Made by a program: the position numbers and the translations under genes. The notes under the pieces are model-generated. The model had not been told where the DNA came from and searched no databases. It saw nothing but the letters and a program-made list of their open reading frames with translations. Source: a virus. Taken from it: a stretch of 64,000 nucleotides of DNA. Every line of letters starts with the position of its first letter. The first letter of the stretch is position 1. This document shows positions 2,179-48,647 of the stretch, piece by piece. Where the stretch lies: positions 32,001 to 96,000 of IMG/VR virus record IMGVR_UViG_3300038620_000126; one strand, given 5' to 3'.

Positions 2179-3858
2179 TTGGCAGGATTTTTAGATAATA
2201 TAACATCTGGAATTGTAAAGCCTATATCTGATGCGTTTAAGCGCCTTAGTTCTGCTGGGCTTCAATATAAAGATCAAGTAATACAAAATTCTATTACGCT
2301 TGAACAAGAACCTGGAAGTGCAGGAAATAGAACGAATCGTTTTAACTTTGGAGACAACCAAAATGATATTGATCCATCATATGCAGAATTTCTAAACAAT
2401 GCCGCACTAGCAGATTATAACTTTAAAAAGTATGTTCCCTTTTTTGATAATGACTATGCATCAAAACGAAGTGAACTTCAAAGATTTTCAATGAATGGTG
2501 AAATTGATTTTATTCTTTCTACATTATCAAATGATTCAATCGTATTTGACACAGAAAACAAATTTTGTTATGTTGATACTTCAAAATTAGAAGACTATTC
2601 AGAAGAGGTTCGAGAAAGTGCCAGAAACAGGTTTGAAGAAATTTATACTTTGTTTTTTGGTTATTCAGATATGCCTTATAGATATTATCGTCAATGGTTA
2701 ATAGAGGGTGTTATTGCTTTTGAAATTGTTTATGACGATATAGCAACCCCCAGTCAAATTATCGGTTTTCATGAGGTTGACCCCGTTACATTAAAACCCG
2801 AAATCCGACAAGAAAATGATGGTAGTTTTTATAAGGTTTGGGTACATGATCAAAATAGTTCAAATTATGGAAACGCACGTAGTACAGCAAATCAAAAAGA
2901 ACTTTATGACAGTCAAATAATTTTTATTTCTTTTGGAACACCGAACCAAACAACTCGTGTTTCATATGCAGAAACCCTTGTACGTTCTTATAATCTTCTT
3001 AGAATTATGGAACACAGTCGGGTTATTTGGAACTTGATGAATTCAAGTTTTCGATTAAAAGCTGTTGTTCCAACGGGTTCCGTTTCTGGTCATAAGATGC
3101 GTCAAAAAGTTTCCGAATTTAAAAATGAATGGAAAGAAGATATTCACATAGATGATGATTCAGGTGAAATATCTGTTAATGGACAGCCCAACTTTCCATT
3201 CCATAAAACATTTGTAATACCCTCAGCAGGTGGTGAACAAGTTGAAATTGACTCTATGAATTTTGAAGGGCCTGATCTTTCAAATATGGAAGCGGTTAAA
3301 TGGTTTCGTGATAATCTTAGACGTGATTCAAAAATTCCCTTTGAACGTTTTGAACGTGAACAAGGTGGCGGAGAATATACAATGAACGTCGAAGGCATTG
3401 CACGGGAAGAAATGAGATATAACCGTTTTATAAACCAACTTAGAAGTACATTTGAAGAAATTATACGTAAACCTTTGTATCATCAAATGTTGCTGGATTA
3501 CCCTCAACTTCAAGATGATATGACTTTCCAAAGTAAGTTGGGCATTAAATACAACAGAAATAATCTTTTTGAAGAAATGAAAAAAGCTGAACTGGTTAAG
3601 AGGGAAGTTGAAACTATATCAACAGTTCAAAATAATTTAATGGAAGAAGGTGGTGAGCAACCTTATATTCCAACAGAATGGGCAATAAACAAATTCTTAA
3701 ATCAGTTTACAGAAGAAGAAATGGAAGACCTCAAAGAAGCCAGAAAAAATCGTGAAATACGAAAGAAAAAAGAAGAACAAGGTGAAGGCGAAGGAGAAGC
3801 TGGAGCCGGAGCTGAAGATATGGGGGGTGATGAAGGAGGCTTAGATATTGGACTTTAA
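2179..3858 (+). CDS. gp20: Portal vertex protein (T4 gp20-like)
   Basis: YRQWLIEG, YNLLRIME, VKWFRDNLRRDSKIPFERF, IAREEMRYNRFINQLRSTF motifs; acidic Gly-rich tail. Confidence 0.92.
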   Translation: MAGFLDNITSGIVKPISDAFKRLSSAGLQYKDQVIQNSITLEQEPGSAGNRTNRFNFGDNQNDIDPSYAEFLNNAALADYNFKKYVPFFDNDYASKRSELQRFSMNGEIDFILSTLSNDSIVFDTENKFCYVDTSKLEDYSEEVRESARNRFEEIYTLFFGYSDMPYRYYRQWLIEGVIAFEIVYDDIATPSQIIGFHEVDPVTLKPEIRQENDGSFYKVWVHDQNSSNYGNARSTANQKELYDSQIIFISFGTPNQTTRVSYAETLVRSYNLLRIMEHSRVIWNLMNSSFRLKAVVPTGSVSGHKMRQKVSEFKNEWKEDIHIDDDSGEISVNGQPNFPFHKTFVIPSAGGEQVEIDSMNFEGPDLSNMEAVKWFRDNLRRDSKIPFERFEREQGGGEYTMNVEGIAREEMRYNRFINQLRSTFEEIIRKPLYHQMLLDYPQLQDDMTFQSKLGIKYNRNNLFEEMKKAELVKREVETISTVQNNLMEEGGEQPYIPTEWAINKFLNQFTEEEMEDLKEARKNREIRKKKEEQGEGEGEAGAGAEDMGGDEGGLDIGL

Positions 3859-8631: not shown

Positions 8632-11600
8632 TTAAAAACTGTTATCCACTTCTTTTTAAATGTTACATCATCATTATAATTCGTATCAAAAATTCTAACT
8701 TCTACACTGTATTGTCCACTACGTTCAAATGTGTAGATAAAGTAATCTAAGTTGTTTACTTGAGCAATAAGCTCACCATTTAGTTCTTCATCAAACAGTT
8801 TCCAAATTATGTTGTGCCTCCCCGGTATTTTGCTTTTATCTGGAACCAATACTATTGGAGCCATAGTTGGTATAGAAATAGTGTTATCATAAAATCTAGT
8901 TTCGCCTAGATTAAATGAATTATCTAACGCTTTTGCAAATTCAAAACTTTCAAGATGGTCAACTCTTACATTCCAGTTCTGAATTTCAAAATCCAAACTT
9001 TCTATAGGTTCGTTTCCAAGTGAATTAAAACCCCTTATGTTAATGGGGCCTTTTAGTCCAATAAAGGCACTTCCTTTAGTTCCAGTATATCTAGCAACTG
9101 CATGAATGTAAGTTGATATATCCTCTTGACTTTTGGGTTCAGCTATAGGTCTCGCGGTGTATTCAAAATCTTTTATACCATCTGCTTGTGAGTCAGATAG
9201 TATTTTTGCAATGGTGGTATAGTCATTTTGTTTTACATTATAAACAGGGAAACCATTAAATGTATTTGAAGATCCATTATAGGCTTTGAACCGTCCATTG
9301 TTGTTAATGTAATATTTTTCGGGTATTGTATAAGGTTCTTTCCCACCGACTTGAATAGATGCACCACTGGAAATATTATCTACTTCAAATCCAGCGGCCG
9401 TTTCACCATGTATATCAAAATATTCAAAACTTACATGTTTTAAGTTGTTAATGGGTGCTCTAAAAAATTCATTAATTTCAAATCCAGTTCCAAAGTTTTC
9501 TGGTCTGTTTTCAATAGTATTTGAAAATATGTAATTAACTCCATTCAAACTTTCGGTTTGAATACTACTTGGAACTTCGCGATTTTCTGGATCTTGTAAT
9601 GGTTTATTTAGTGGTGAAAAAAGTTCTCTAATAGGATAATCATTATTTTTAATAGTATTGATTTCTGGTTTGAAAAATCTAGTAAATGCAAGAAAATCGG
9701 CTTGCTTTGATGAAACATCAATATAGTCATATTTTGTTTTATACGATGTTCCCCCATATCCATTAAACAGTTTTAATGTTACAGTATATTTTCCTTCATA
9801 CGGAAGTATAACCATATAATCTCTAAGATCGTAAATTGTGCCTCGCCTGCTAAATGAAAATGATTTGTTTGGTTCATTTGGAAATGTTTTTTCTACTATC
9901 CATTCCATTTCACGAAAACTACCAATACCAATATTTTCAATACTTGCAAGGTTGGAAAGTGGAAAACTACTATAAACTTCTACCAAACTGTTTTGATCTG
10001 GTTGAGTATCTATAAATATTGTTTCCTCATTTGGCCTTAGTCTAAATTCATATACTATATAGTCTCCACTAATTTGATTTCCATTTTCGTCTATAGCTGG
10101 ATCGGTTACTGGTGTAGTGGTTCTGTCATAAAGGTTAAAATACAGAACACTACCATTTACAAACCACCGTAAAACCGCAGGATCAGTATTGGGTTGAAAT
10201 AAAGAACTATTTTGATTACTAACATTTAGATCTTCCCATCCACCTGCAAACGGAGGTGCTCCAGAAGGCTGTGGAAATTCAATAAAAGCTTTTACAATAG
10301 TAAAGTTACCATTACTATCTTTGAAAGGTTTTGAAAAGTTAATTCCGGGTCTAAGGTTACCAAATGTTTCTGTAAGACTTTCTATGGGTGATGTTTCATT
10401 TTCAACAAGATCAGCAAGTTGAATAAAACTCATATCCAAATCTTTTATAGGAACTTCAAAAGTTGTATTTTTTAGTTTTAGTGGAAAACCGACAGGGATT
10501 CCTTTTTCATTTTGTAATTCAACTGACTCTTTGTTTATATTGTTATAAAATGCTATCCGATCATCTGAAACTCTACTTAACGGAAAATCAAAAATAGGTT
10601 TTTTTTCAATTAATTGTTCTTTGGAATTAACTTTTAGTATATAATTTGATGGTATTCCCTTAAATTTGTTAGAATAGCCATACTGACTTTTCAATAAATC
10701 TGAATTTGGTTCAATTAATTCAATAATATAGCCCTGCCCATCTTTTTCAATAACTTCTGGATATAGTGGTGAGAAAAATTCACTTTGCACGTAATCTTTA
10801 TACTCAAAATTTGTTCTAAACTTTAGGTTAGTCCATTCTGAAAGCGTTCCACTATAGTTTACTCTAACGCGAACTGTTAACCCCCTATCTGATGGAAGAT
10901 TAGAAATTGCAAACTTTGTTTGTGTAGAACTTCCTGATGCAACCACAAGTCCTTGATTATCTATAACTTCGTATTCATAATTTGTTACTGTATTAGCATG
11001 AGAATAATTTTTAAGTTTTAAAGTTAGTTTATAATTTGAGTTAGTTTCTATCAATTCAAATATTCTAAGATTTTGAATGGGTGGATTCGGATCATTTAGT
11101 ATTCCATCGTATAATAAAAGTGATGTAGGTGGTGATATAAAACTATTTTTTCCAGATCCGAATTCTGCTTTTAGTGTTACTTCATTGAATACAACACCAG
11201 ATTCTAAATTAACTTTAATTTTATTATTTGGATACAATTCTGTTTTACCTGATAGATTAGGTGTTGTATTAATCGTGTTAATACCTTCAAAAATTGGTCT
11301 TAAATCTTGAATATATCCATCAGTGCTTTCAGCATGAAACTCTGGATTAAGCGACTGATCAATTCTTGATACTCTATTGTTTGAAGTCCATTTTCTTTGA
11401 TTATAACTTGAAAAGTAAATTGCTTCACCAGTTATGTTAATTATTTGAGCATTTAATGGTAAAAACTGTTCCTGTAACTTTTCTCTAAGGCCATAAAGTT
11501 TTATGAGAACTTCCTCGTTTGTAAAGTCAAATGCTTCTTCTGTTTCTGGAAGACCGAACCGAGTAAATTCACCATCCACAACTCTATTAATATCATAAAA

Positions 11601-13000: not shown

Positions 13001-14365
13001 TTAAACTATTACTCTACCTTCAACATCAGAAACAGCTTTAACATCTTCTTTTGTGAAATCTTTTTTATTTTCATCACAAATAAAATCACCCCCAACTTTT
13101 TCAGGAGCACCTTCAAGGGATGTTAAATTATTACCAAAACAATCAAAATCACCCCCAACTTTTTCAGGGGCACCTTTAAGAGATGTTAGACTATTACCAA
13201 GACAATTAAATTCACCCCCAACCTTTTTAGGTGCATCTTCAAGGGATGCTAAATTGTTATGGGAACAATCAAAATCACCCCCAACTTCTTCAGGTGCACC
13301 TTCAAGTGTTGTTAATTTATTACCAGAACAATCAAAATTACCACTAATATATTTAAGCCTGTAATTGTTTATAATTTTTTTATAATTTTTAGGGTTGAAC
13401 TTTAAATTTACATTACCTTTAATGTTAACTATATTTCCATCTATTTCAAATGTCCCATCAACAACATAATTTAATGTTTCTTTTGGGCTTGAAGAGAAGC
13501 TATTTATATCATAAGATTTAAATTTATCAATAACATCTTTCTTAAAAAATACGGCTTGTTCAGGTTCATTGGGATGAATAAACCAGTCTTCACCTTTATC
13601 AATAAAACCTTCAATATCCAAGTCCAAGTAAATTTTTGTTTTAAATTGTATACTTTTATCTTCTCGTAAAGCTAAATCAACATAGTTATTTACAAAAAAC
13701 CAAAGTGTTTCAACCGTTGGTTGATAATTTTTAGTATTACGCATTATAGTATGACTTAATTCATTCCATTTTGCTGAATATTTTCTGGAATATGTTAAAC
13801 TATTTAAATTAGTTTTCATTTTTTTAAAACTTTCTTTTCTTTCTGATTTATTATTTGATTTCATAGCTTTTATATAGTTAAACAATAAATCGAAAGCATC
13901 TTGTGGAAGATTATTTTTTAATTTCTTGTTAGACTTACAAATTTTGTAGAACTTTTCAATATGTTTAAGAACTTCAGAATCATGAGTTAAAATTTTACCT
14001 TTTTGAATTTTGTTTTCTTTAATTTTAAATAAGTGAATTACATTAGACATATTAGGAATAAAAGGATAAAATCGTTCTAATCTTTCTTTAATTTTTTCAT
14101 TAGGAGTACTATTTGTAAAACCTGCTGTTATCCTATTATAATCTTCTTTGTTAAAAGGGTAAGCATAATATCCAGCGGGTGTATTATAACCAGTAAAAGG
14201 ATTTATAAATGTTACAGTATTTTTCCGTCGAAATGAAATAAACCAATTATCTAAACTGTCATTTCCAATAGTATTTTTAATAAATTCAACAATGTTTATA
14301 TCTCTATTGACTTCAGGGTTTCTTCGCTTTTCCGTTAAGTAATTTTGAAAAGACTTTAAACGCAT
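13001..14365 (-). CDS. Capsid-tagged protein: putative ART-like domain + 22-aa leucine-rich repeats
   Basis: N-term MRLKSFQNYLTE; TPAGYYAYP and EGFID..IHPNEPEQAVFF; four FDCxxNxLTSLEGAPEKVGG repeats. Confidence 0.7.
   Translation of the reverse strand: MRLKSFQNYLTEKRRNPEVNRDINIVEFIKNTIGNDSLDNWFISFRRKNTVTFINPFTGYNTPAGYYAYPFNKEDYNRITAGFTNSTPNEKIKERLERFYPFIPNMSNVIHLFKIKENKIQKGKILTHDSEVLKHIEKFYKICKSNKKLKNNLPQDAFDLLFNYIKAMKSNNKSERKESFKKMKTNLNSLTYSRKYSAKWNELSHTIMRNTKNYQPTVETLWFFVNNYVDLALREDKSIQFKTKIYLDLDIEGFIDKGEDWFIHPNEPEQAVFFKKDVIDKFKSYDINSFSSSPKETLNYVVDGTFEIDGNIVNIKGNVNLKFNPKNYKKIINNYRLKYISGNFDCSGNKLTTLEGAPEEVGGDFDCSHNNLASLEDAPKKVGGEFNCLGNSLTSLKGAPEKVGGDFDCFGNNLTSLEGAPEKVGGDFICDENKKDFTKEDVKAVSDVEGRVIV
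13080..13340 (-). repeat. 66-bp tandem coding repeats (LRR units, about 4 copies)
   Basis: aaaatcacccccaactttttcagg(a/g)gcacctt... recurs at 66-nt spacing. Confidence 0.9.
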
Positions 14366-14377
14366 TTTTAATTTTTT

Positions 14378-14650
14378 TTATTTATTTAAGTTATATTCTT
14401 TTATTACATTTTTAGTATCATAGTTAACATTATTAAAAATCTTATTGTCATCTAAATCAAAAGCTTTAAGTTTTCCTTTTATATTATAACCGAATTGTTC
14501 TGAATGGGCATTTCTACCTGAACCCCCACGCCTCAAAAAAGTTAATTCTTTTTTATTGAGATTCATTTGTGATTTTAACCAATCAAGAAAAGGTTTATAA
14601 TCTGTTTTCTTTTTTGATTTTACATAATCTTTGAATTTTTCTAGTTCCAT
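14378..14650 (-). CDS. Small basic protein, possible degenerate capsid tag (MELEKFKDYVKS)
   Basis: 90-aa ORF between the two LRR paralogs. Confidence 0.65.
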   Translation of the reverse strand: MELEKFKDYVKSKKKTDYKPFLDWLKSQMNLNKKELTFLRRGGSGRNAHSEQFGYNIKGKLKAFDLDDNKIFNNVNYDTKNVIKEYNLNK

Positions 14651-14664
14651 TAAACTGATTTTTA

Positions 14665-16326
14665 TTAAGTGTCAATAAATCCACTAACATCTATAACATT
14701 TTTAATTTCTTCTACTGTAAATTCTTTTTTATTATCCATGATCATAAAACCACGGACCTTTTCGGGTGCGCCTTTAAGAGATGTTAAGTTATTATGAGAA
14801 CAATCAAACACCTTTTCAACTTCTTTGGGGGCACCTTCAAGAGATGTTAATTGATTATTAGAACAATCAAAACCTTTTCTGATATAATTAGGAGCACCTT
14901 CAAGTGTTTTTAATTTATTATCAGAACAATTATAGTCACCTCCAAAGTTAAATCCTTTTTGCTCAAATCCAACTTCCTTCGGCCCCCCCTTTAAACTTGT
15001 TAATTTATTATCAGAACATACAAAATTTCCAATAATTTTTTGGGGACAACTTTCTAAAGATTTTAGTTTATTATTAGTACAGTCAAGATCACCACCTATT
15101 TCATTTGGTAAACCTTTTAATGTTTTTAGATCATTAGATTTACATTTTACATTTGTCTTTACAGTTGAAATGCCTTCTAATGTTTTGAGTTCGTTTAAGT
15201 TACATACAAATTCACCATCAACTTTTTTGGGGCATCCTTCTAAAGATTTTAATTTATTATTAGAGCAGTCAAATTTTCTTCCTACATATTCAGGAATTCC
15301 AATTCTTAGAAGAGATGTAATACCGATTGCTTTACAAATAAAACTTCCAGTAACATTACCAAATTTATACTTTTCTGTAATTCTATAAAAATCTGCTTTA
15401 CTATTAAAAAATACATCTCCATCAACATTAATTACATTGTTTTCTTTTATTTCATATCTTCCACGTATTACTTTATTAAGTAAGTTGTTTATGTTACCCA
15501 CAAAATCTATTATGTCGTAGGAATAAAGATTTTCAATAACATCTCTAGTAAAAAATATAGCCTGTTCGGGTTCATTGGGATGAATAAACCAGTCTTCACC
15601 TCTATCAATAAAACCTTCAATACCTAAATCCAAATAAATTTTTGTTTTAAGCTGCGCTCCACCAGTTTTCACTAAGTCAACATAATTATTTATAAAAAAC
15701 CAAAGCATTGAAACCTTTTTCTGTTTTTTAATAACAAGTTTTAACTTACTCCACATTTGATCCATTTCATAATCATTTGGTTTTATATTTTCAATTAATT
15801 CACTGACTTTATTATAGTCTTTTTCTTGATTCACAACAACTTCTAACAAGTCAAAAGCAGCCTGCGGAAGGTTATCTTTTAATATTTTCTTTGTTTTACA
15901 AATTTTATAGAATTCTTTAATATGTTTAAAAGCTTTTGAATTTCTTGTTAATATTTTTCCACTTTTAACTTTTTCTTGTTTGATCTTGAATAGATGAATT
16001 ATGTTAGAACCCCTTGGAAAAAATGGGTAAATATCTTTTATTTTAGTTTTAACTGAACTGTTATCGCTACTTTCATCATATTTACTTAGTAATTCATTAT
16101 AGTCTTCTTTATTAAATGGATATGCATAATATCCAGCAGGAGTATTATATTCGGTAAAAGGGTTTACAAATGTTACAGTATCTTTTTGTCGAAATGAAAT
16201 AAACCAATTATCCAAACTATCATTTCCAATAGTATTTTTAATAAACTCAATTATGTTTATATCTCTATTAACTTCAGGGTTTCTTCGTTTTTCTGTTAAG
16301 TATTCATAAAAATTTAATAACTTCAT
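14665..16326 (-). CDS. Capsid-tagged ART-like + LRR protein, paralog of 13001-14365 with about 9 repeats
   Basis: MKLLNFYEYLTEKRRNPE; near-identical first ~75 aa to paralog; IHPNEPEQAIFF; longer LRR array. Confidence 0.7.
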   Translation of the reverse strand: MKLLNFYEYLTEKRRNPEVNRDINIIEFIKNTIGNDSLDNWFISFRQKDTVTFVNPFTEYNTPAGYYAYPFNKEDYNELLSKYDESSDNSSVKTKIKDIYPFFPRGSNIIHLFKIKQEKVKSGKILTRNSKAFKHIKEFYKICKTKKILKDNLPQAAFDLLEVVVNQEKDYNKVSELIENIKPNDYEMDQMWSKLKLVIKKQKKVSMLWFFINNYVDLVKTGGAQLKTKIYLDLGIEGFIDRGEDWFIHPNEPEQAIFFTRDVIENLYSYDIIDFVGNINNLLNKVIRGRYEIKENNVINVDGDVFFNSKADFYRITEKYKFGNVTGSFICKAIGITSLLRIGIPEYVGRKFDCSNNKLKSLEGCPKKVDGEFVCNLNELKTLEGISTVKTNVKCKSNDLKTLKGLPNEIGGDLDCTNNKLKSLESCPQKIIGNFVCSDNKLTSLKGGPKEVGFEQKGFNFGGDYNCSDNKLKTLEGAPNYIRKGFDCSNNQLTSLEGAPKEVEKVFDCSHNNLTSLKGAPEKVRGFMIMDNKKEFTVEEIKNVIDVSGFIDT

Positions 16327-16370
16327 TAAACAAACTTTTTAACTATTTATTTAGTAATTGCATTTTTAGT

Positions 16371-17930
16371 TTAGTTGTTAGTCATTTTCCACTTAATTTT
16401 ATCAGTACTATAAATTTTTTCATATCCCATTTTTTTCATGATTTCAGATTCTGTATTATTACTTACAAAACTTTGATCTAGCTTAAATTTTTGTTGTATT
16501 CTTTTTTTAGAAAATGCAGATTTATGAATACGTTTATCACTTTTATAATATGAATAATCTGGTTTAGTTTCATACACTTTTTGAAAACCTAACTTTTGAT
16601 ACATATCTCCTGTAAACATTGAACTATCAGAAAAACTAATAATTTTTTCTGGATTATAATTTTTAACAAAATAATTAAATAGCTTACTAGAACCACCAAT
16701 AACATTTGTGTTAAGAATCGTAGCATATCGAGTAAGTTCCCAAACATCTTCTTTGTTTTTTGATGTTGATATATTTCTAGTTCTTTTGCTAAAACTCATA
16801 CAAGCTACCAGTCTTGTTTTATAATAAAGACCAAAATTTAATTCATAAAAAGAATTTAAACCTTGAATGTGATTTAATTTATAAAACTTTTTGATTTCTT
16901 TTGGATTGACTTTTAACACACTACATTTTCTAGCATATACTTTATTTTCGGTTTTACCAATTGCATTTTTTATAAGCGACTTTACTATATCTGTTTTGTA
17001 TTGCCAGTCATCTTCCCATACATGTATTAACCTGTATCCAGCTTTTTTGCAAAGATCTGTTTTTCTTTTATGGTAATATTTGTCATTTAAAAACTTATGT
17101 GAATGATAGTATAATCCATTGAATTCAATTGCTAATTTATAATTTGGTATTACAATATCAAGTTCATAAGGACTGATAAGTTTTTTATCATTAAAAAGTA
17201 ATTCATTATAATTTATTAAAGAAGTAATATAATTTTTTAGTTGCATTTCGCCCTTAGAAGTATATCTTTGACGTTTGTTATAACAAAGTGGAACACCATC
17301 ATTTAACAACTTATTAACTTGATTTTTATTAATAGAAAATTGATTCTGTGTGCAACTACAATCATGACACTTTAATGTAATAGAGTTGGATTCATTTTTT
17401 AAAATTTTATAATTATCTTTTAATTTTTCATAATTATTTTTTACCCATTCACTTAACACTTTTTCTTTTATATACTTTGATTGAGATGGTACTTTTGTGC
17501 CATATTTTTTAAGATTTGTGTTTTCTCTTTTTGCTTTAATTTCTTCAATTTGGTTGGGATTCTTAACTCCATACTTTTTAAGCAGTGTGTTTTCTTTAGA
17601 TTCTTTAACCGAATTGTCTTGAGAAATATTAGTAACATTATAACGATTTTGATTTGTTGCTTCTCTTTTTTTGTTTGTTATATTCTTTCCTTTTTTACGG
17701 CAATCTGAACTGCAAAATTCAGCAAATTTCTTTTTTTCGTTTATCCACTTTGTTTTTAATCCACACCATTTACATGTTGGTAAAGACTTTAATCCGTTTT
17801 TATACAAATAAAACTTTTGTGAAGTTGTTAAATCTTCAGATTTTTCTACATCACTAAAGTAATCTTTTGTATTATCTTCAAAGTATTGTCTATGCTTTTT
17901 ATATCTAAAATCCAGATTATCCATTTTCAT
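16371..17930 (-). CDS. Free-standing homing-endonuclease-like protein (Zn finger, KKYGV repeats, Vsr/PD-(D/E)XK nuclease, GNAT-like C-terminus)
   Basis: CKWC...FCSSDC; KKYGVKNPNQ repeats; ELDIVIP.YKLAIEFNGLYYHS; IHVWEDDW; ELTRYA..GGSSKLF. Confidence 0.75.
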   Translation of the reverse strand: MKMDNLDFRYKKHRQYFEDNTKDYFSDVEKSEDLTTSQKFYLYKNGLKSLPTCKWCGLKTKWINEKKKFAEFCSSDCRKKGKNITNKKREATNQNRYNVTNISQDNSVKESKENTLLKKYGVKNPNQIEEIKAKRENTNLKKYGTKVPSQSKYIKEKVLSEWVKNNYEKLKDNYKILKNESNSITLKCHDCSCTQNQFSINKNQVNKLLNDGVPLCYNKRQRYTSKGEMQLKNYITSLINYNELLFNDKKLISPYELDIVIPNYKLAIEFNGLYYHSHKFLNDKYYHKRKTDLCKKAGYRLIHVWEDDWQYKTDIVKSLIKNAIGKTENKVYARKCSVLKVNPKEIKKFYKLNHIQGLNSFYELNFGLYYKTRLVACMSFSKRTRNISTSKNKEDVWELTRYATILNTNVIGGSSKLFNYFVKNYNPEKIISFSDSSMFTGDMYQKLGFQKVYETKPDYSYYKSDKRIHKSAFSKKRIQQKFKLDQSFVSNNTESEIMKKMGYEKIYSTDKIKWKMTNN

Positions 17931-18672: not shown

Positions 18673-18826
18673 ATTTTCATATGTTTTTGTATTTATTTAA
18701 CCTTTGACGTTAAAGATAATAAAAAGAAAAGTATTTTACAAAAGTTTAAAAATAAAAAACCCGTTCAACGATAAAGCTGAACGGGTTTTTAAGTTTAGTG
18801 ATGGTTAGATTAAAGGAAATCAACAC
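18673..18826. repeat. 154-bp direct repeat, copy 2 (native MCP 3' end)
   Basis: Matches 17923-18076. Confidence 0.92.
18754..18790 (-). terminator. Intrinsic terminator of major capsid gene
   Basis: aaaaacccgttca...tgaacgggttttt. Confidence 0.85.
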
Positions 18827-20630
18827 CACCAGCATCAGATGTTACGTCGAACGTAAGATAAGAAGTTTCTGGATACTTACCTGCCTCCGTGATAGCAGCG
18901 CGAGACTTAACTGCAATCTTTGGAGCCATAGTACCTTCAGCAATAGTGCTAATCGATTCTGCCATAAGGTATGGCATAAACTTAATTCCAGGTTCTTCAT
19001 CGCTTCCCTTACGCATAACGCAAACGCGAGAATCATTCCACTGCATGTTAGCATCACTATAAACAGTAACACCGAATACAGTACCATGAGGACTTACACT
19101 TGAGTTAGCTTGATCAAATGTATTTTGGAAGCTTGATGGCATGTAACCAGCAACATCTACCATACTCTGAGTTAAACGTCCACTCATAACAGCGCAATTA
19201 CCAGGTCCAATACGGTTGCGGTGATGCAAGAAACTTGCAACAGCACCAATGGTTCTTGGAATTCTCCGTTGAATGGTTTCTTGGTTTTCATACAAGGTTG
19301 TGGTACCAGTGAAACCCAAAGCGTTTGCAGGTTGACCTGCACTAGTTGGGAACGTTGCTAGTGTATTATCTTTACCCGGGTAGGTTGAATAAACACCATT
19401 ATTACCAATGTGTAAGTTGAAGTCCGATCCTTCAGTTTTGTAACTGTTAATATGGTTAGTCCAACCTAGTGCCATTGCGCGTCCAATCAGTGCTTTACTA
19501 AAGCTTTGAGTAAGCTCATTAACACAAGCACTTTCAGACATACCAACAGCATCAATACCCCAAATGGATTGATAGTCTTGGATTTGTTCAGTCTTCAATG
19601 GTAAAGCAATTTGGAAAGTTTCTGCTTCTACCAAACGGCTGAACATTTCCATGCCCAGTTCGCGATAATAGGTATTTTCACCAGTTTCGCGACTCATTGG
19701 GGAAGCATATGGACCTGCGTTAGCACCACTTGCATTACTGTTTGTGTATTGGCCAGCTTCAAAACCTTCAAAGTTAAGAGTAAAATCATCATTGTCTTGA
19801 GAACCAGCACCACTAAATCCGGGAATGTGGTTAGTAAGTGCAGTTGCCAGTTCTGCTCTAACGCCACCAAGCGCATTACTATCAGCAACAACACTACCAC
19901 CACTAGTCGGATCAAACAACCGATAACTTGTAGTGGTTCCCGTAAATACATCACTAATAGCCAAATTACCTGCGTTATTAGTGTATTGCACACGGAAAAT
20001 TGGATCAGGAGTAATACGATGCTTACCTAAGAAAGTCAAGGTCATAACTGTTTGGTTACTACCACTGCTTTCTTGAACTTCGTATTGCCGACCTTTAACC
20101 AAGCTATCAATAGTGCTTTGAGAAAGGTTATTGACAGCAATAACATAAGGAGCATTTTGTTTGCCCTGACCACGAATTTGACCACCAGCATAATTGTACT
20201 CTAGATAAGGCAACATAATTGCAGGCTTATCCATAGGGATAACAGGGAAAAGATCAAAAGCTGGTGTTTCAGCAGCAACCTGAATTGATACAGGAAGGGC
20301 AGCAGGGAAAACATCACCAGACCCCGTGTTACCACGATAAAACACATTTTGTGTAGAACCTTGTGGACCTGCAATTGAATTACCAGCACCATATTGTGCG
20401 GGGTTTGAAGGAGCTTGAACAGCACCAATACCATTAACATTACCCAAGGAAGCAGAAGTTTGACCAGCTTCGTTCAAAGGACCCATTGCACGTTTTGCAT
20501 GGTTATGGCAATATTGGTACAGCCACTGCCTACGGGATTCAGATAGTTGACTAGTATCAATGTTCATACTTTGCAACACTGGATCCCATGTTTCTTTTAG
20601 TTTTTGACTACTGAAGTCTTTAATAAACAT
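18810..20630 (-). CDS. gp23: Major capsid protein (T4 gp23-like)
   Basis: LKETWDPVL N-arm, LNE cleavage site, FPVIPMDKP, GIKFMPYL..TMAPKIAVKSR; follows prohead protease. Confidence 0.93.
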   Translation of the reverse strand: MFIKDFSSQKLKETWDPVLQSMNIDTSQLSESRRQWLYQYCHNHAKRAMGPLNEAGQTSASLGNVNGIGAVQAPSNPAQYGAGNSIAGPQGSTQNVFYRGNTGSGDVFPAALPVSIQVAAETPAFDLFPVIPMDKPAIMLPYLEYNYAGGQIRGQGKQNAPYVIAVNNLSQSTIDSLVKGRQYEVQESSGSNQTVMTLTFLGKHRITPDPIFRVQYTNNAGNLAISDVFTGTTTSYRLFDPTSGGSVVADSNALGGVRAELATALTNHIPGFSGAGSQDNDDFTLNFEGFEAGQYTNSNASGANAGPYASPMSRETGENTYYRELGMEMFSRLVEAETFQIALPLKTEQIQDYQSIWGIDAVGMSESACVNELTQSFSKALIGRAMALGWTNHINSYKTEGSDFNLHIGNNGVYSTYPGKDNTLATFPTSAGQPANALGFTGTTTLYENQETIQRRIPRTIGAVASFLHHRNRIGPGNCAVMSGRLTQSMVDVAGYMPSSFQNTFDQANSSVSPHGTVFGVTVYSDANMQWNDSRVCVMRKGSDEEPGIKFMPYLMAESISTIAEGTMAPKIAVKSRAAITEAGKYPETSYLTFDVTSDAGGVDFL

Positions 20631-23080: not shown

Positions 23081-23479
23081 TTAATCATCATCTTCTTCAC
23101 CCAAACCATATCTATCCTCTAACTCTTCCGCTGCTCCTTCTATTCCATAACTATCTTTCATTTCAGCCGTTTCAATAACATGTTTCATAACTTTTTCTTT
23201 TAATGAACCACCATCTTTATCTTCTGCAGCATCTAACAGTGCCATTAAGTCATTTTCAAATTCTAAATCAAATTCATCTGCTGCATCTTTCATAGCATAT
23301 TCAAGTGCATCATCTTTTACATTGTCTGCCACTGCGTCTGCTATATCATCAATATCAAATTCGGAAAATGCTCTGTTAGAACTTAAATTAAATTCAAGTT
23401 CTTCATTTATCTTCTTTTTATTTTTTGAAATTTTATTTTCTTTGATAAATTCATTAAATGTAGGTAGTTTACTTCTCAT
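23081..23479 (-). CDS. Capsid-tagged highly acidic internal protein
   Basis: MRSKLPTFNEFIKEN...INEE then D/E-rich body. Confidence 0.8.
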   Translation of the reverse strand: MRSKLPTFNEFIKENKISKNKKKINEELEFNLSSNRAFSEFDIDDIADAVADNVKDDALEYAMKDAADEFDLEFENDLMALLDAAEDKDGGSLKEKVMKHVIETAEMKDSYGIEGAAEELEDRYGLGEEDDD

Positions 23480-23538
23480 AATTATTGTTTTTGTTATTTA
23501 TTTAATAAAAAAAAATCCCACTTCAAAAGTGGGATTTT
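23445..23538 (-). repeat. 94-bp cassette header copy A (terminator + late promoter + codons for MRSKLPTFNEFI)
   Basis: Two mismatches versus 24260-24353. Confidence 0.93.
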
Positions 23539-23580: not shown

Positions 23581-24294
23581 CTACAGTATAGTTTCCATCA
23601 TATTCTTAACATCTTTTTTGTTTTTAACAGGTTTATTGTAACCTGTAATTGCTTTAATATACTGTATAGAGTGTTTGTTATCAGGATCCAGTAAATCTTC
23701 AAGTCCAGGATCGCCCATTTTATATCTATTGTACAATTTACTTGAAAAATACATAAACGCATCACCAACTGCATTTTTTACTTTTGCTCTTATGGTGTTT
23801 ACTTTATCTTTTATAATGTTATCTACATCGGGTTCATTTTTTATTAATTTACTACTTACCTTTTTAACTGCATCATTAAGTGCAATAATAACTTCAGTTG
23901 CAACTCGTTTCTTAGCAAAGTCTTGAATAATACTTTCAACTTTATCTTCATTATCACCAAAAATTTCAGGCTTTGTTTTTTTATGCCGTTTTGCAATACT
24001 CTCAAAGAGATCGTTAAAAAAATCTATTGTTACTTTTTCAGTAAAGCTTTTAATAAGGTCATTCAATTTTTCAACTTTGTCTTCAGATCCACTTCTTTTA
24101 ATTCTAGTTACTTCATCTTTATAAACTGATAATAAAGATACGTCACCAGAATCAAGTGACTGTAACATATGCTTTGGTGCATGTTTTAGTAATGGATGAT
24201 TAACTGCATCTTGTATAACATCTGGCATATCACTTTTAGCCATGTTTTGATTTTCAGTAATAAATTCATTAAATGTAGGTAGTTTACTTCTCAT
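23581..24294 (-). CDS. Capsid-tagged helical internal protein
   Basis: MRSKLPTFNEFITEN; body unrelated to neighbour. Confidence 0.8.
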   Translation of the reverse strand: MRSKLPTFNEFITENQNMAKSDMPDVIQDAVNHPLLKHAPKHMLQSLDSGDVSLLSVYKDEVTRIKRSGSEDKVEKLNDLIKSFTEKVTIDFFNDLFESIAKRHKKTKPEIFGDNEDKVESIIQDFAKKRVATEVIIALNDAVKKVSSKLIKNEPDVDNIIKDKVNTIRAKVKNAVGDAFMYFSSKLYNRYKMGDPGLEDLLDPDNKHSIQYIKAITGYNKPVKNKKDVKNMMETIL

Positions 24295-24353
24295 AATTAT
24301 TGTTTTTGTTATTTATTTAATTAAAAAAAATCCCACTTCAAAAGTGGGACTTT
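24260..24353 (-). repeat. 94-bp cassette header copy B
   Basis: Matches 23445-23538 at 815-bp offset. Confidence 0.93.
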
Positions 24354-25100: not shown

Positions 25101-25682
25101 TCAATTAACACCAAGAACTTTTTTGATATCCTTAACAATTTTTTTAACTTTTTTGGGAACCTCTATTTTAATTTTGTCAACATCTAATTCACGTTCTACC
25201 TTTGCTGCTGTGTTTGTGTATAAAGTTTTCATTGTTTTAATATTTTTGTTAAGTTTACTGGAATTCACTGCTTCTGATGCTTCATCAGGATCAACAACAT
25301 TAATAAAAACTTCATAAACGTTTTCATTTTTATGATAAATAACTTCACTATAAAGAGCTGCTTTCTTTTTTTCAATTTTATCTAAAAACTCTTTTACTTT
25401 ATCACCTTTAGATGATTCATCAATTAACTTTTTCGTTGATTTTTGAGAAAGAATTCCAACATAGCTGTATGCATGTTTGTTTCGCTCAAGTCTTAAATTT
25501 TCTTTTTCAACAGTTTTAATTTTGTATTGTTCTTCATAAATATTTATAATACTTCTCATAATTAATGAAGCAAATTCTTCTGTAGGTGCTTTCATATTTG
25601 TAAGCACGCTATCATAAAGACCTTCTTTAACATTTTTATTTTCTTTAATAAATTGACTAAATGTAGGTAGTTTGTTTTTCAA
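25101..25682 (-). CDS. Capsid-tagged basic internal protein
   Basis: MKNKLPTFSQFIKEN; late promoter; TTG start. Confidence 0.78.
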   Translation of the reverse strand: MKNKLPTFSQFIKENKNVKEGLYDSVLTNMKAPTEEFASLIMRSIINIYEEQYKIKTVEKENLRLERNKHAYSYVGILSQKSTKKLIDESSKGDKVKEFLDKIEKKKAALYSEVIYHKNENVYEVFINVVDPDEASEAVNSSKLNKNIKTMKTLYTNTAAKVERELDVDKIKIEVPKKVKKIVKDIKKVLGVN

Positions 25683-25694
25683 AGCTGTTTTTTT

Positions 25695-26216
25695 TTATTT
25701 ATTTACTAGGAAAAATTCTACTGCATTTTTATAGTCTTTAGGAACAGAATTTTCAATTGTATCATGTATCCATTCCGATGCAAGCCATGTTAAAATTACT
25801 ATTTTTACTTCAGATTTAGTTAGTTCTTCAAATTTCATTTTTCCCTTTTCAGTTTTAAAAGTTTGATTATAATCTATTATTTCATTTTTTATGTAAATGT
25901 AAAAATCTTTAATTTTATTTCTACTAACTTCATATTTTTTATCAACTCTTTTTCGCATTATATCGTCTATTTCACTAAACATGTAGTCAAACGCCTCGCT
26001 GGGTTTTGGTAACTTTGAATCTTTTTTGTAGGTTTTTCCGTGTTTTGTTCGCTGCTTTTCTTTCATATGTTCTATATCATCAATAACAATAGAAGCGGTT
26101 TCTCTTAATCCACGTTTTATAAATCTTTTACTTTTATTTGTAATGTTAAAGGGGTTATCGTCGTATTCAAACGCTTCAAATAAAAATTCAGAAAAAGTTG
26201 GAATAAAGCTTGACAT
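25695..26216 (-). CDS. Capsid-tagged internal protein
   Basis: MSSFIPTFSEFLFEA; late promoter. Confidence 0.78.
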   Translation of the reverse strand: MSSFIPTFSEFLFEAFEYDDNPFNITNKSKRFIKRGLRETASIVIDDIEHMKEKQRTKHGKTYKKDSKLPKPSEAFDYMFSEIDDIMRKRVDKKYEVSRNKIKDFYIYIKNEIIDYNQTFKTEKGKMKFEELTKSEVKIVILTWLASEWIHDTIENSVPKDYKNAVEFFLVNK

Positions 26217-34777: not shown

Positions 34778-35269
34778 TTATATCATTTTATCAATTTGCT
34801 TGTAAAGACTTGGAAATCTTTTATTTATATCAACCAAAAGAGAACGGTTTAAAGTATTAGAAAATATAGAATCTAAAAACTTAAGTAACTTTTTTTCTTT
34901 AGTAGATTCACTTTTAGTGTTTATTATAGTAGCTGCTTTTTTATATAAATTTTCACTTTTTCTTCCATCTGGAAGCTCACCATTCATAAATCCATTTACA
35001 AACTCATGAAATCCCATATAATCTAACTCATGAAAAAGAACACGAAGTGCTATAATAGAATATTCATCTAAAGAATTTTTTTGTAAAGCATCAACAACAT
35101 GTGTTACTTTTTTATACCTATTATCTATGTTTGGCTTGTGAAGTATAGTATTGTAATATTTTACTATTTTGTCAACAATATTATTAGATTTAATTTTACT
35201 GTTATTTTCATTAATTCCACTTTGACTTTCATTAACAAATTGATTAAATGTGGGTAGTTTGCTTTTCAT
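34778..35269 (-). CDS. Capsid-tagged internal protein
   Basis: MKSKLPTFNQFVNES..INEN; header similar to 23445/24260 repeat. Confidence 0.78.
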   Translation of the reverse strand: MKSKLPTFNQFVNESQSGINENNSKIKSNNIVDKIVKYYNTILHKPNIDNRYKKVTHVVDALQKNSLDEYSIIALRVLFHELDYMGFHEFVNGFMNGELPDGRKSENLYKKAATIINTKSESTKEKKLLKFLDSIFSNTLNRSLLVDINKRFPSLYKQIDKMI

Positions 35270-46961: not shown

Positions 46962-47825
46962 TTGAAAAATAACCAAAGAAAAATACCAAATTTTTCTGAA
47001 TTTCTTAATGAAAAACAAAATAATAATTTTGAAAGGTTATATGAATTTTTGAATACAGAAATGTTAGCGCTTAAAAATTATCTTACTTTAGACAAAGAAA
47101 AACAAAAAGATGATTTAGCTAATACATTTCCATTTTTATGGGAATATTTTGCAAAGGAACATAATTACGATCCAAATAAAGTACAAGACTTTGATGATAT
47201 AGATGAACTTACAAGTGAAGAGAAAAAAAAGTTCAAAGATTGGTTATATAAACAAATTGTGAAACTTGGTGGTGGTCATTTACCAATAATGGATGCTGAT
47301 ATTCCAAGTTGGTTCTATTTTGATTATATAAAAATTGTTAAAAATCAATGGTTGGTTCATTTAACTGACTATCCATTTGAAATTGTAAAAGATGGTTTTA
47401 CAAAAGGTGTAATGGCAGTAGATAAATTGGGATTAACTACAGCATTTGGGGGTAGTATAAAAGAATTTGGGGGCTATAACTTTGCTTATGATATTGATGA
47501 TGTCGAAAGATACGGTAGGGCATCTAGAAACAGTATGAGAGATGAATACAACTATGGTGATGAAGCAGTTTTCTTTAGGGGGTCAGGTGTAAAAGTATAT
47601 CATTATGGTGATGAAGAAGATCAAGTTATATTTTTTGGTAAAAGTGTTACAAACAGAATAGCAGCTGTAAAAGATGATGAAGTTCCTGTGTGGGAAGATA
47701 GTAAATGGGCTTTAATATCTAATAAAACTGATAGGCCGATAGTTAAAAAAGATACATTAGGTGAGTTAGGTTATTGGCTCCAACAAAATGAACAACAGTA
47801 TAAAAGTCATATTTCAAATAAATAA
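46962..47825 (+). CDS. Capsid-tagged protein with putative ADP-ribosyltransferase-like fold
   Basis: KIPNFSEFLNE; WLVHLTD..GF..GYNFAY..EEDQVIF. Confidence 0.55.
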   Translation: MKNNQRKIPNFSEFLNEKQNNNFERLYEFLNTEMLALKNYLTLDKEKQKDDLANTFPFLWEYFAKEHNYDPNKVQDFDDIDELTSEEKKKFKDWLYKQIVKLGGGHLPIMDADIPSWFYFDYIKIVKNQWLVHLTDYPFEIVKDGFTKGVMAVDKLGLTTAFGGSIKEFGGYNFAYDIDDVERYGRASRNSMRDEYNYGDEAVFFRGSGVKVYHYGDEEDQVIFFGKSVTNRIAAVKDDEVPVWEDSKWALISNKTDRPIVKKDTLGELGYWLQQNEQQYKSHISNK

Positions 47826-47833
47826 AAAAAATT

Positions 47834-48475
47834 ATGGAAGAAAAGTCTAAAGAAGATGTATTAAAAGTTTTAATGGATTATAAAGAAAACCCATCAGCAG
47901 GAGATACTGAAAAAATAAAAAATGCAAAAAAATTACTTCTTAATACAGACGCAGGACAAGAAATAATTAAAAAATCACAAAAAGAAGTAAAAAAGTCAGT
48001 TAAAAAACGAAATGATGAAATATGTTGCTTCGGAACTAATAATAAAGCTGTTGTTTTTAGAGGGGGTTCAAATGTAGGATTTGAAAGTGATGCTGGTTGG
48101 ACTTTAGATGCATTTACAGCTTCAAGATTTGCAGTTATGTTTGGAAACCCAGAACCAGGTGTATATGAAGGTGAAATTGGTATTGGAATGGTGAATATTG
48201 AAGATATAGTGTTTTATGATGTAGCATTTGAAGATTACATAAAAAGTAAAAATCCTACAGTTATAGAACACGAAATAATAACAAAAAAATTAGGTGATGT
48301 GAAACCTTTAAGTGATATAGAATATATAACTGTTGAAGGTGATGAAGATGGTTTTCCTACAGAAGAATCAGAAGAAAAAATTAAATCAACAGTAAAAAAG
48401 TATGTTAAAAATATTAATGAATCGAAAAAAATTCTTACTTTTTTTGAATTCTTAAATGAAAGAAAACAACTATGA
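47834..48475 (+). CDS. Putative ADP-ribosyltransferase (R-S-E type) with C-terminal capsid tag
   Basis: VFRG..GWTLD..ASRFA..EHEII; ends INESKKILTFFEFLNERKQL. Confidence 0.62.
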   Translation: MEEKSKEDVLKVLMDYKENPSAGDTEKIKNAKKLLLNTDAGQEIIKKSQKEVKKSVKKRNDEICCFGTNNKAVVFRGGSNVGFESDAGWTLDAFTASRFAVMFGNPEPGVYEGEIGIGMVNIEDIVFYDVAFEDYIKSKNPTVIEHEIITKKLGDVKPLSDIEYITVEGDEDGFPTEESEEKIKSTVKKYVKNINESKKILTFFEFLNERKQL

Positions 48476-48647
48476 AACTAAAATCTTTTGAAAACTACAT
48501 AACAGAAAAACGAAAAAAACCAGATAAAAATATACAAGATAAATTTTTACCTTGAAGATGATTTTAATTGTATTGCTAATAAAAAAAGATTTTACAAAAG
48601 AAGATGTTAAAGCTGTTTCTGATGTTAAAGGTAAAATAATAGTTTAA
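48472..48647 (+). pseudogene. Internally deleted remnant of an ART-LRR gene
   Basis: MKLKSFENYITEKRKKP..* followed by DFTKEDVKAVSDVKGKIIV*, matching both termini of 13001-14365. Confidence 0.85.

Follow-up and report, generated by a model that had tools for sequence, protein, structure and literature searches.

Two paralogous phage genes that combine a capsid-targeting-like tag, an ADP-ribosyltransferase-like domain and a leucine-rich repeat array: candidate head-packaged cargo of a huge uncultured phage

Two paralogous genes of an uncultured phage, referred to as A and B, encode proteins in which a short N-terminal tag is followed by a domain with a predicted ADP-ribosyltransferase (ART)-like fold (the N-domain) and by a C-terminal array of leucine-rich repeats (LRRs) (Table 1). 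The genes are located in a window of 64,000 bases, being bases 32001-96000 of a 110,246-bp IMG/VR virus contig (IMGVR_UViG_3300038620_000126). We lean, by a modest degree, toward the reading that A and B are late proteins that are packaged in the head, clipped by a protease and injected as cargo, the LRR array binding a host protein and the ART-like domain modifying or blocking the target. In such a mechanism, the first 12 residues would bring A and B into the prohead core, as the capsid-targeting sequence (CTS) of phage T4 does, and the Peptidase_S77 prohead protease would cut after the L-x-E sequence of the tag (after E12). The mature proteins would be kept in the head and would enter the host with the DNA. 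The C-terminal LRR solenoid would then bind a host protein via its variable concave face, positioning the N-domain on the target, and the N-domain would either block the target or modify it, through ADP-ribosylation or another NAD-linked reaction. The packaging, cleavage, injection and catalysis of A and B, as well as the nature of their target, are what we infer, and catalytic ADP-ribosylation by the N-domain specifically is regarded as doubtful.

A and B share 52% amino-acid identity over 459 columns (E 2e-154). When calculated in 25-codon windows, the identity is 80-92% for residues 1-75, drops to 20-64% in the helical middle part and is back at 92% for residues 242-266 of A, which correspond to the EGFID.GEDWFIHPNEPEQA.FF block. 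An initial annotation of this DNA had described nearly identical first ~75 residues, a divergent helical insert and a conserved block of this kind, and all three descriptions hold. In the first 75 codons, the codons of 16 of the 65 identical residues differ synonymously, which suggests that the conservation reflects selection, and not only recent gene conversion. The C-terminal tail (..KK.FT.E..K.V.DV.G..) is also conserved between A and B.

The N-terminal tag and the head genes

The 174 open reading frames (ORFs) of the contig with at least 60 residues were scanned for the tag pattern [FYW]xx[FYW][LIVM]xE, starting within the first 21 residues. The pattern is found at the N terminus of 15 of these ORFs, as compared with 13 occurrences across the other ~36,000 residues, so that 15 N-terminal occurrences are observed where 1.3 are expected (Poisson p 1.5e-11). 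The tag noticed in the initial annotation is real and specific. About a dozen plausible tagged genes are present on the contig, the tag having the form M..KLPTF.EF[IL].E and variants thereof. The tagged proteins are alike only in their first ~16-26 residues and have unrelated bodies, and the tagged genes are considered a candidate set of head-cargo genes.

The tag closely resembles the T4 CTS, which is MKTYQEFIAE (PMC8442874), and in which targeting needs residues 4 and 7, and processing by gp21, which cleaves after L/I-x-E, needs residues 8 and 10 (PMC9026906). The spacing of F6, Y9, L10 and E12 of A and B is identical to the spacing of these four T4 residues. This is also seen in the wider N-domain family, for which conservation was counted over 118 very diverse members (residues are given in B numbering throughout): E12 is kept in 113 of the 118 members; two positions earlier, L, I or V occurs in 95 of 109, and A or K follows E12 in 94. 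The cleavage-type site itself (L/I-x-E followed by A/K) is therefore conserved across the family.

The enzyme presumed to process the tags is encoded nearby, being a Peptidase_S77 protein of the T4 gp21 type (Pfam PF03420, 36.3 bits, with a cut-off of 27; phrog_207, 4e-38). In this protein, the protease domain (the first ~210 residues) is fused to a C-terminal region of ~550 residues, which is possibly a scaffold; in T4, the gp21-type protease and the scaffold are separate proteins. The N-terminal sequence of the gp23-type capsid protein has PLNE|AG near residue 54, which is a further supporting feature. The closest relatives of this capsid protein, all with less than 35% identity, are those of uncultured huge phages, of the Lak phages and of phages that infect Tenacibaculum, Flavobacterium and Chryseobacterium, so that relatives of this protein occur in phages of Bacteroidota. 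Given these capsid relatives and the gp20-, gp21- and gp23-type genes, the contig (G+C ~29%; completeness estimated by CheckV as 41%) is a fragment of the genome of a large, uncultured phage that is myovirus-like and has T4-type head assembly. A and B are directly downstream of the T4-like head genes.

The motif AATAAATA is found 15-29 nt upstream of 41 of the 104 predicted genes of the contig, mostly structural and tagged genes, including 11 of the 13 tagged genes and both paralogs, and is a candidate late-promoter element. Judged by this motif, which precedes the paralogs, most tagged genes and many structural genes, A and B appear to be late genes, each having a promoter of its own. The T4 late promoter TATAAATA was also considered as the motif of this contig and is not enriched. 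Two tagged genes upstream of the protease gene carry copies of a 94-bp cassette, which consists of a hairpin terminator, AATAAATA, an A-rich leader and the first 12 tag codons, and the copies agree at 92 of the 94 positions, before unrelated gene bodies.

Outside this contig, gene_89 of Enterobacter phage EspM4VN (L014:418-906; Ackermannviridae) encodes a standalone ART-PolyVal-like protein that starts with MKTFLEYFRE. The N termini of this protein and of a protein of Vibrio phage VB_VaC_SRILMA (MCTFEEWFGE; WXB48033.1, discussed below) agree with the CTS-like pattern, and cargo of cultured phages may therefore carry the tag as well.

Fold of the N-domain and geometry of the repeats

Neither Pfam nor PHROGs gives a match for residues 1-300 of A and B, LRR families being the only ones found in these proteins. 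A word-indexed protein search with the N-domain finds one relative besides the two proteins of the window, and a search of the ESM Atlas gives no usable matches. By exhaustive HMMER searching with a three-sequence profile, 699 cluster representatives are found at E <= 1e-3, including 63 that reach E <= 1e-10; all ten members that were looked up are metagenomic 'hypothetical proteins'. When family members are compared by tblastn with 50,697 phage records, the N-domain is found only in an uncultured 735-kb phage (LR756501/LR756503), the other matches being to the C-terminal repeats. Cultured phages thus essentially lack this family.

Five blocks are conserved in the family: [LI]-x-E-[AK]-R-R-N-P-E-x-N-P-K; F-x-S-F-[TR]...G-I-N-P...Y-x-T-P-x-G-I-Y-x-Y-P; P-F-A-G; F-W; and L-G-I-D-G-F-x-D...I-H-x-N-E-P-x-Q-A-V-F-F. 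Q255 and P63 are invariant, and T62, D241, I248, E252, G65, Y67, Y69 and H249 are each present in 116-117 of the 118 members. The set formed by S44, Y67, Y69, D241, H249, E252 and Q255 is unusual. The family members differ in the type of repeat at their C termini, which can be Ank, WG, DUF4116, HEAT, LRR or pentapeptide repeats, and this pattern fits a constant module that is joined to exchangeable binders. Pfam searches of longer family members and of the other tagged genes of a related phage reveal no informative fused domains.

The N-domain of A is predicted from its single sequence by AlphaFold2 with a predicted local distance difference test score (pLDDT) below 50 and this model is not usable. 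The AlphaFold model of residues 1-300 of B, made with the 118-sequence alignment, has a pLDDT of 89.4 and a predicted template modelling score of 0.83. It has six strands (residues 41-46, 66-70, 109-115, 238-242, 254-258 and 264-271) and a helical insert (117-233). The GYYAYP and E..Q..FF sequences, on which the initial annotation had based its suggestion of an ART fold, are the most conserved parts of the family and form strands 2 and 5 of the six-stranded core in this model.

A Foldseek search of the PDB with the N-domain model gives nothing at E <= 1e-3. The model was also compared with 48,161 PDB chains using VIA-align, and the top 624 chains of Foldseek were re-scored separately. The best match overall is chain 9k3a_B of the pre-ejectosome of cyanophage A4 (Z 6.3, root-mean-square deviation (rmsd) 4.7 A), which is spread over ~660 residues of that chain, a part that the publication on it leaves undescribed, and is suggestive only. 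Apart from this chain, every PDB match across the beta core (approximately residues 37-273 of the model) belongs to the ART superfamily, as found for ParT (Z 5.3, 109 residues aligned), NatT (5.3), Xre-RES (5.2), MbcT (4.8) and VPA0770 (4.7); the matches to the insert are generic helix bundles. The re-scoring adds PARP1 (Z 4.5), PARP2, PARP4, PARP12 and tankyrase (3.7-4.1), and RCD1, with Z ranging from 3.7 to 4.5. When Foldseek is used with BFVD, the first matches are three unnamed viral proteins (E 9e-7 to 1.6e-4), followed by a 'large polyvalent protein associated domain' protein, and the top 30 include 8 with the name ART-PolyVal-like or PolyVal ADP-ribosyltransferase (E 1.3e-3 to 0.11).

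These comparisons agree with the initial suggestion in part. The conserved core strands and the core-spanning ART matches (ART-PolyVal-like proteins in BFVD; ParT, RES and the PARPs in the PDB) are in its favour; the scores are consistent but weak, Foldseek finds no ART fold in the PDB at the above threshold, the sequence tests are negative and the catalytic triad is not kept (see below). An ART-like fold is the best structural reading of the model but is not proven, and the N-domain is best regarded as an ART-like family of its own, uncharacterised and with atypical conserved residues.

In the LRR array, both Tandem Repeats Finder and the unit spacing give a period of 63 bp, or 21 residues, instead of the 66 bp and 22 residues stated in the initial annotation, which had otherwise counted the units (about four and about nine) and located their variation correctly. 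A has four regular units and a terminal half unit, and B has nine units (spacings 23, 21, 20, 21, 21, 30, 21 and 21), also followed by a half unit. The unit is G-x-F-x-C-x-x-N-x-L-[TK]-[ST]-L-[EK]-G-A-P-x-x-V-G, with hardly any variation in F, C, N, L, L, P and V. The entropy is highest at positions 2, 4, 6, 7 and 9, which are the x positions of G-x-F-x-C-x-x-N-x-L, and next at positions 18-19. In the single-sequence AlphaFold2 model of A, the array has pLDDT values of 80-92, with a short strand at each F-x-C-x. LRRs of standard geometry have the x positions of their strand on the concave side, and by this geometry the variable positions of A and B are the canonical concave-face ones.

A phmmer comparison with PDB sequences matches InlJ (3e-7), YopM (1.6e-6), SspH2 (1.4e-5) and IpaH, in each case in the LRR part only, and the Pfam LRR_4 score of 23.2 bits is below its cut-off of 27 bits. 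The C terminus of A and B is an LRR solenoid of the short bacterial type, with tandem units that have the L..L.L..N.L core and a period within the usual 20-22 residues. The number of units differs between three relatives, being four in A, seven in P0002 (the orthologue in a related phage, discussed below) and nine in B. The DNA identity between units is 73-90% in A and P0002 and 35-76% in B, and one adjacent pair of units is 97% identical in DNA, which points to a recent duplication. Judged from these sequences, the number of units changes by local duplication and deletion. No evidence of a dedicated diversification mechanism for the array was seen. The earlier idea of a diversifiable recognition surface is supported as regards the varying concave-face positions and unit numbers.

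The proposed function and its alternatives

Several observations weigh against the function proposed here. The phage is uncultured. The tag region (E12, R14, N16, N20 and K22) is also conserved in the family, and in the model it forms a helix on the domain; it could therefore be structural instead of being a removable propeptide. The likeness to ARTs is structural and weak, with Z values below 6.5, being the range where the tool warns of a merely common arrangement. ART-PolyVal (PF18760) is defined by a His in strand 1, a Tyr in strand 2 and an Asp in strand 5 (Iyer et al. 2017, PMC5512222), and this H-Y-D/E triad is not kept in the N-domain, when its residues are mapped by motif order and secondary structure, not by superposition. 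Strand 1 (F-[IV]-S-F-[TR]) has no conserved His, strand 2 keeps Y67 and Y69, and strand 5 starts with an invariant Gln where an acidic residue is expected, with an invariant His-x-x-Glu in the preceding loop. The missing His of strand 1 and the Gln of strand 5 make classical ART catalysis doubtful.

The sequence comparisons with ART families are all negative. The Pfam models of RES (PF08808) and ART-PolyVal have no match on the contig, the latter having none at E <= 10, and at this same threshold the 118 family members give no ART-PolyVal match and no recurring ART family. Profile searching of the PDB sequences with the N-domain gives chance-level matches only. A small ART-PolyVal alignment was made from RPP1, the virion RNA polymerases of three related roseophages, Pseudoalteromonas Y3, EspM4VN and cr130_1. 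The hhalign comparison with a 6-sequence ART-PolyVal alignment is not significant (P 0.099), pairing G-I-D-G with G-Y-D-G, and hmmsearch --max against the small alignment finds nothing. A word-indexed search with the RPP1 domain for standalone ART-PolyVal proteins gave no matches.

It is possible, but rather unlikely, that A and B are packaged and injected while the N-domain is a pseudoenzyme, an ART-like scaffold without catalysis, which would, together with the LRR array, bind and block a host factor, or which would bind NAD- or ADP-ribose-derived molecules without transfer of ADP-ribose. This would be in agreement with a strand 1 that has neither a conserved His nor a conserved Arg (S44 is present in 98 of the 118 members, of which 80 have T and 30 have R at position 46), with the invariant Gln of strand 5, at which position ART-PolyVal has Asp and PARPs have Glu, and with the finding of no sequence similarity to any ART family. 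However, the polar cluster of D241, H249, E252, Q255, T62, N55, R14 and N20, invariant across the 118 members, is more like an active site than like a scaffold, and some PARPs that lack the Glu are still mono-ARTs.

An alternative in which A and B are not packaged, the shared N terminus being a conserved first helix and/or part of a portable expression cassette (terminator, late promoter, leader and first codons) of proteins that act in the cell late in infection, is considered unlikely. The tag residues do belong to a longer conserved N-terminal segment of the family, modelled at pLDDT 75-81, and the 94-bp cassette has copied promoter and leader DNA beyond the tag alone. Against this, the pattern is retained at the protein level in spite of DNA differences, as between A and B, and across the metagenomic relatives; the tag is found on about a dozen unrelated bodies that are clustered with head genes; and it agrees with the T4 CTS at the four functionally mapped positions and with the specificity of the phage's own protease family.

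Least probable, and considered very unlikely, is a location of A and B on the outside of the virion, as capsid decorations or adhesins whose LRRs bind the cell surface and whose N-domain anchors them to the particle. This might be thought from the location of the genes between the capsid gene and the gene of a 1428-residue structural-looking protein with a weak PKD match, and from the LRR adhesins of internalins. Against it, the tag resembles a targeting signal of internal proteins, the likeness of the N-domain is to enzymes and toxins that act inside cells and to a domain found in ejection and polyvalent proteins, and the exchange of LRR for Ank or HEAT repeats in the family is typical of intracellular binders.

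The reading of A and B as injected head cargo can be compared with several known systems. The IPI, IPII and IPIII internal proteins and the Alt protein of T4, which are head cargo targeted by a CTS or propeptide and clipped by gp21, share with A and B a signal of ~10-12 residues (aromatic-x-x-aromatic-I/L-x-E) and the occurrence of unrelated bodies behind a common tag, and the gp21-type protease, gp20-type portal and gp23-type capsid protein are also present in the phage of A and B. Alt is itself a head-packaged, injected ART; it differs by being an R-S-E ART without LRRs. There is no sequence similarity between the bodies of these T4 proteins and those of A and B, which are two-domain proteins of 52-63 kDa.

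Head-packaged ARTs encoded beside head genes are an established theme (PMC5512222, PMC9503650), and ART-PolyVal proteins have been predicted to be virion-delivered early effectors (PMC5512222). The ART-PolyVal domains of phage polyvalent proteins (Tox-ART-HYD2 clade) are the best named viral structural neighbours of the N-domain model. The motif order is similar, with a G-aromatic-Y strand 2, a G-[YI]-D-G strand and an x-V-[VF]-F strand, as also seen in the collected ART-PolyVal domains (YHG[TS], G-F-Y-F-T, G-Y-D-G and x-V-V-F). Unlike ART-PolyVal, the N-domain has no hidden Markov model match, no H-Y-D triad and a helical insert of ~120 residues, and it is part of a two-domain instead of a many-domain protein. 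Apart from the cyanophage chain, the RES, ParT and MbcT toxins and the PARPs are the sole solved folds that align over the whole beta core (100-118 residues, Z 3.7-5.3, rmsd 3.5-5.4 A); they do not share catalytic residues with the N-domain and are toxin-antitoxin or eukaryotic proteins.

With the type III effectors IpaH/SspH and YopM, A and B share bacterial LRRs of 20-22 residues and, as an analogy only, the logic of a delivered LRR binder with an effector domain. The LRRs of A and B differ by being C-terminal, the delivery proposed here would be by phage ejection and not by a secretion system, and the Pfam scan finds no NEL E3 ligase domain in A and B, IpaH/SspH being matched in the LRR part only. 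The closest phage LRRs are those of Vibrio phage protein WXB48033.1 and of families phrog_7816 and phrog_21719, which have the same 21-residue unit (..F.C..NNLTSLEGAP..V.G..). WXB48033.1 has 46.6% identity over 177 residues and differs by consisting of LRRs only, without the ART-like domain.

A more tentative proposal, which we hold with some doubt, is that the N-domain represents a large, undescribed clade of ART-fold enzymes that are targeted to the capsid and whose active site is non-canonical (a Ser/Arg in strand 1, a Tyr in strand 2 and a His-x-x-Glu-x-x-Gln in the loop and strand 5), fused by phages to exchangeable binders (LRR, Ank, WG and HEAT). In the lineage of A and B, the LRR arrays would lengthen, shorten and pass from one N-domain to another, thereby retargeting the injected enzyme at host, possibly defence, proteins. 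If true, this retargetable LRR-ART clade would be a phage counterpart of the secreted LRR effectors.

Head-packaged proteins are the first phage molecules to face the defences of the host, and we know of few that have been characterised beyond T4, P1, N4 and the phiKZ group. The combination of an enzyme-like domain with a variable LRR array is known in bacterial secreted effectors and is, to our knowledge, undescribed for phage cargo. What is new here is the N-domain family, its atypical conserved residues, its fusion to variable LRR arrays and a clear T4-like tag in a distant huge phage, where a whole set of candidate cargo genes can be recognised by this short signature. Should this be confirmed, cargo of phages with T4-like heads could be predicted from metagenomes by means of the tag, and the N-domain family would widen the NAD-linked or ART-like chemistry in the conflict between phage and host.

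Relatives, a remnant copy and neighbouring genes

A related-phage contig (locus L006) has nine consecutive genes with the tag. Its protein P0005 (318 residues) consists of the ART-like domain alone, P0002 has the ART-like domain and LRRs, and in other tagged genes the LRR array follows a different N-domain (Table 1). In Vibrio phage VB_VaC_SRILMA, WXB48033.1 (L007:3959-4594; 211 residues) has eight units of the same LRR. As seen from the second N-domain and this LRR-only protein, the LRR array is a mobile C-terminal module that has undergone domain shuffling.

The window also has a remnant of a third paralog, in which the first 27 codons (MKLKSFENYITEKRKKPDKN.., being the tag and EKRKKPDKN..) are joined to the last half LRR unit and the tail, with two frame changes. 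The initial annotation had seen A and B as a paired receptor and effector, which is not supported: they are part of a larger tagged set that includes this remnant, and the related phage has three LRR genes, in which two different N-domains occur. From these sequences, A and B are two members of a turnover-prone family of putative cargo, and not a receptor-effector pair.

The ATG of the remnant overlaps the stop codon of the ORF at 47834-48475. This ORF and the one at 46962-47825 (both on the + strand), which adjoin the remnant, have short motifs that resemble ART strands (..VVFRGG.. and ..IEHEII..; ..GGYNFAY.. and ..DQVIFF..). Pfam, PHROGs and the ESM Atlas give no support for these two ORFs, and their likeness to ARTs is a motif-level impression only.

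Between the paralogs is an ORF of 90 residues, which corresponds to a 275-residue protein of the related phage in shortened form, as it matches L006:7895-8722 (tblastn) at residues 1-45 (91%) and 205-271 (55%). A gene of 519 codons that resembles homing endonucleases (16371-17930, - strand; phrog_3339, 1e-108; DUF7487, DUF559/Vsr-like) is located between the capsid gene and paralog B.

Table 1. Features of the window and of related loci. Positions are those of the window unless stated otherwise.
Feature	Position	Strand	Basis or comment
Paralog A, 454 aa: tag, ART-like domain, 4-unit LRR array, tail	13001..14365	-	ORF list; 52% identity to B
Paralog B, 553 aa: tag, ART-like domain, 9-unit LRR array, tail	14665..16326	-	ORF list; LRR matches to InlJ, YopM, SspH2
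Tag of A, residues 1-12 (MRLKSFQNYLTE), CTS-like, ends in L-x-E site	14330..14365	-	N-terminal enrichment of the pattern; T4 literature
Tag of B, residues 1-12 (MKLLNFYEYLTE)	16291..16326	-	ORF list; tag pattern
ART-fold-like domain of A, residues 13-290; helical insert at ~117-235	13496..14329	-	699-representative family; model of homologue B and fold matches
ART-fold-like domain of B, residues 13-290	15457..16290	-	AlphaFold2 with 118-sequence alignment
LRR array of A, residues 342-425, four 21-aa units	13091..13342	-	Tandem Repeats Finder: period 63, 4.1 copies, 80% matches
LRR array of B, residues 327-525, nine units, diverged, partly irregular	14752..15348	-	Unit listing
Terminal half LRR unit and conserved tail of A (KKDFTKEDVKAVSDV..)	13004..13090	-	Tail common to A, B, P0002 and the remnant copy
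Terminal half unit and conserved tail of B	14668..14751	-	Alignment to A
Late-promoter-like motif AATAAATA of A	14379..14386	-	21 nt upstream of A start codon
Motif AATAAATA of B	16344..16351	-	25 nt upstream of B start codon
Other tagged genes in the window	23081-23479, 23581-24294, 25101-25682, 25695-26216, 34778-35269, 46962-47825, 51104-52096		Tag pattern
Tagged genes outside the window (contig coordinates)	11553-11980, 12676-13388, 24530-25636		Tag pattern
94-bp cassette copies	23445-23538 and 24260-24353	-	Before unrelated gene bodies; both tagged genes upstream of the protease
Prohead protease (Peptidase_S77, T4 gp21 type) with long C-terminal region, 768 aa	20676..22982	-	Pfam and PHROGs matches (see text)
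Major capsid protein (gp23 type)	18810..20630	-	Pfam Gp23, 3.6e-12
T4-like portal (gp20)	2179..3858	+	Pfam Portal_T4, 1.6e-63
LRR array behind a different, unannotated N-domain, tag MRLKSFQEYIN..	L006:2461-4224 and 8734-9984	+	
Remnant third paralog	48472..48647	+	Translations; blastn 89% over 89 nt to 3' end of A
90-aa ORF between the paralogs	14378..14650	-	Shortened form of 275-aa protein of related phage

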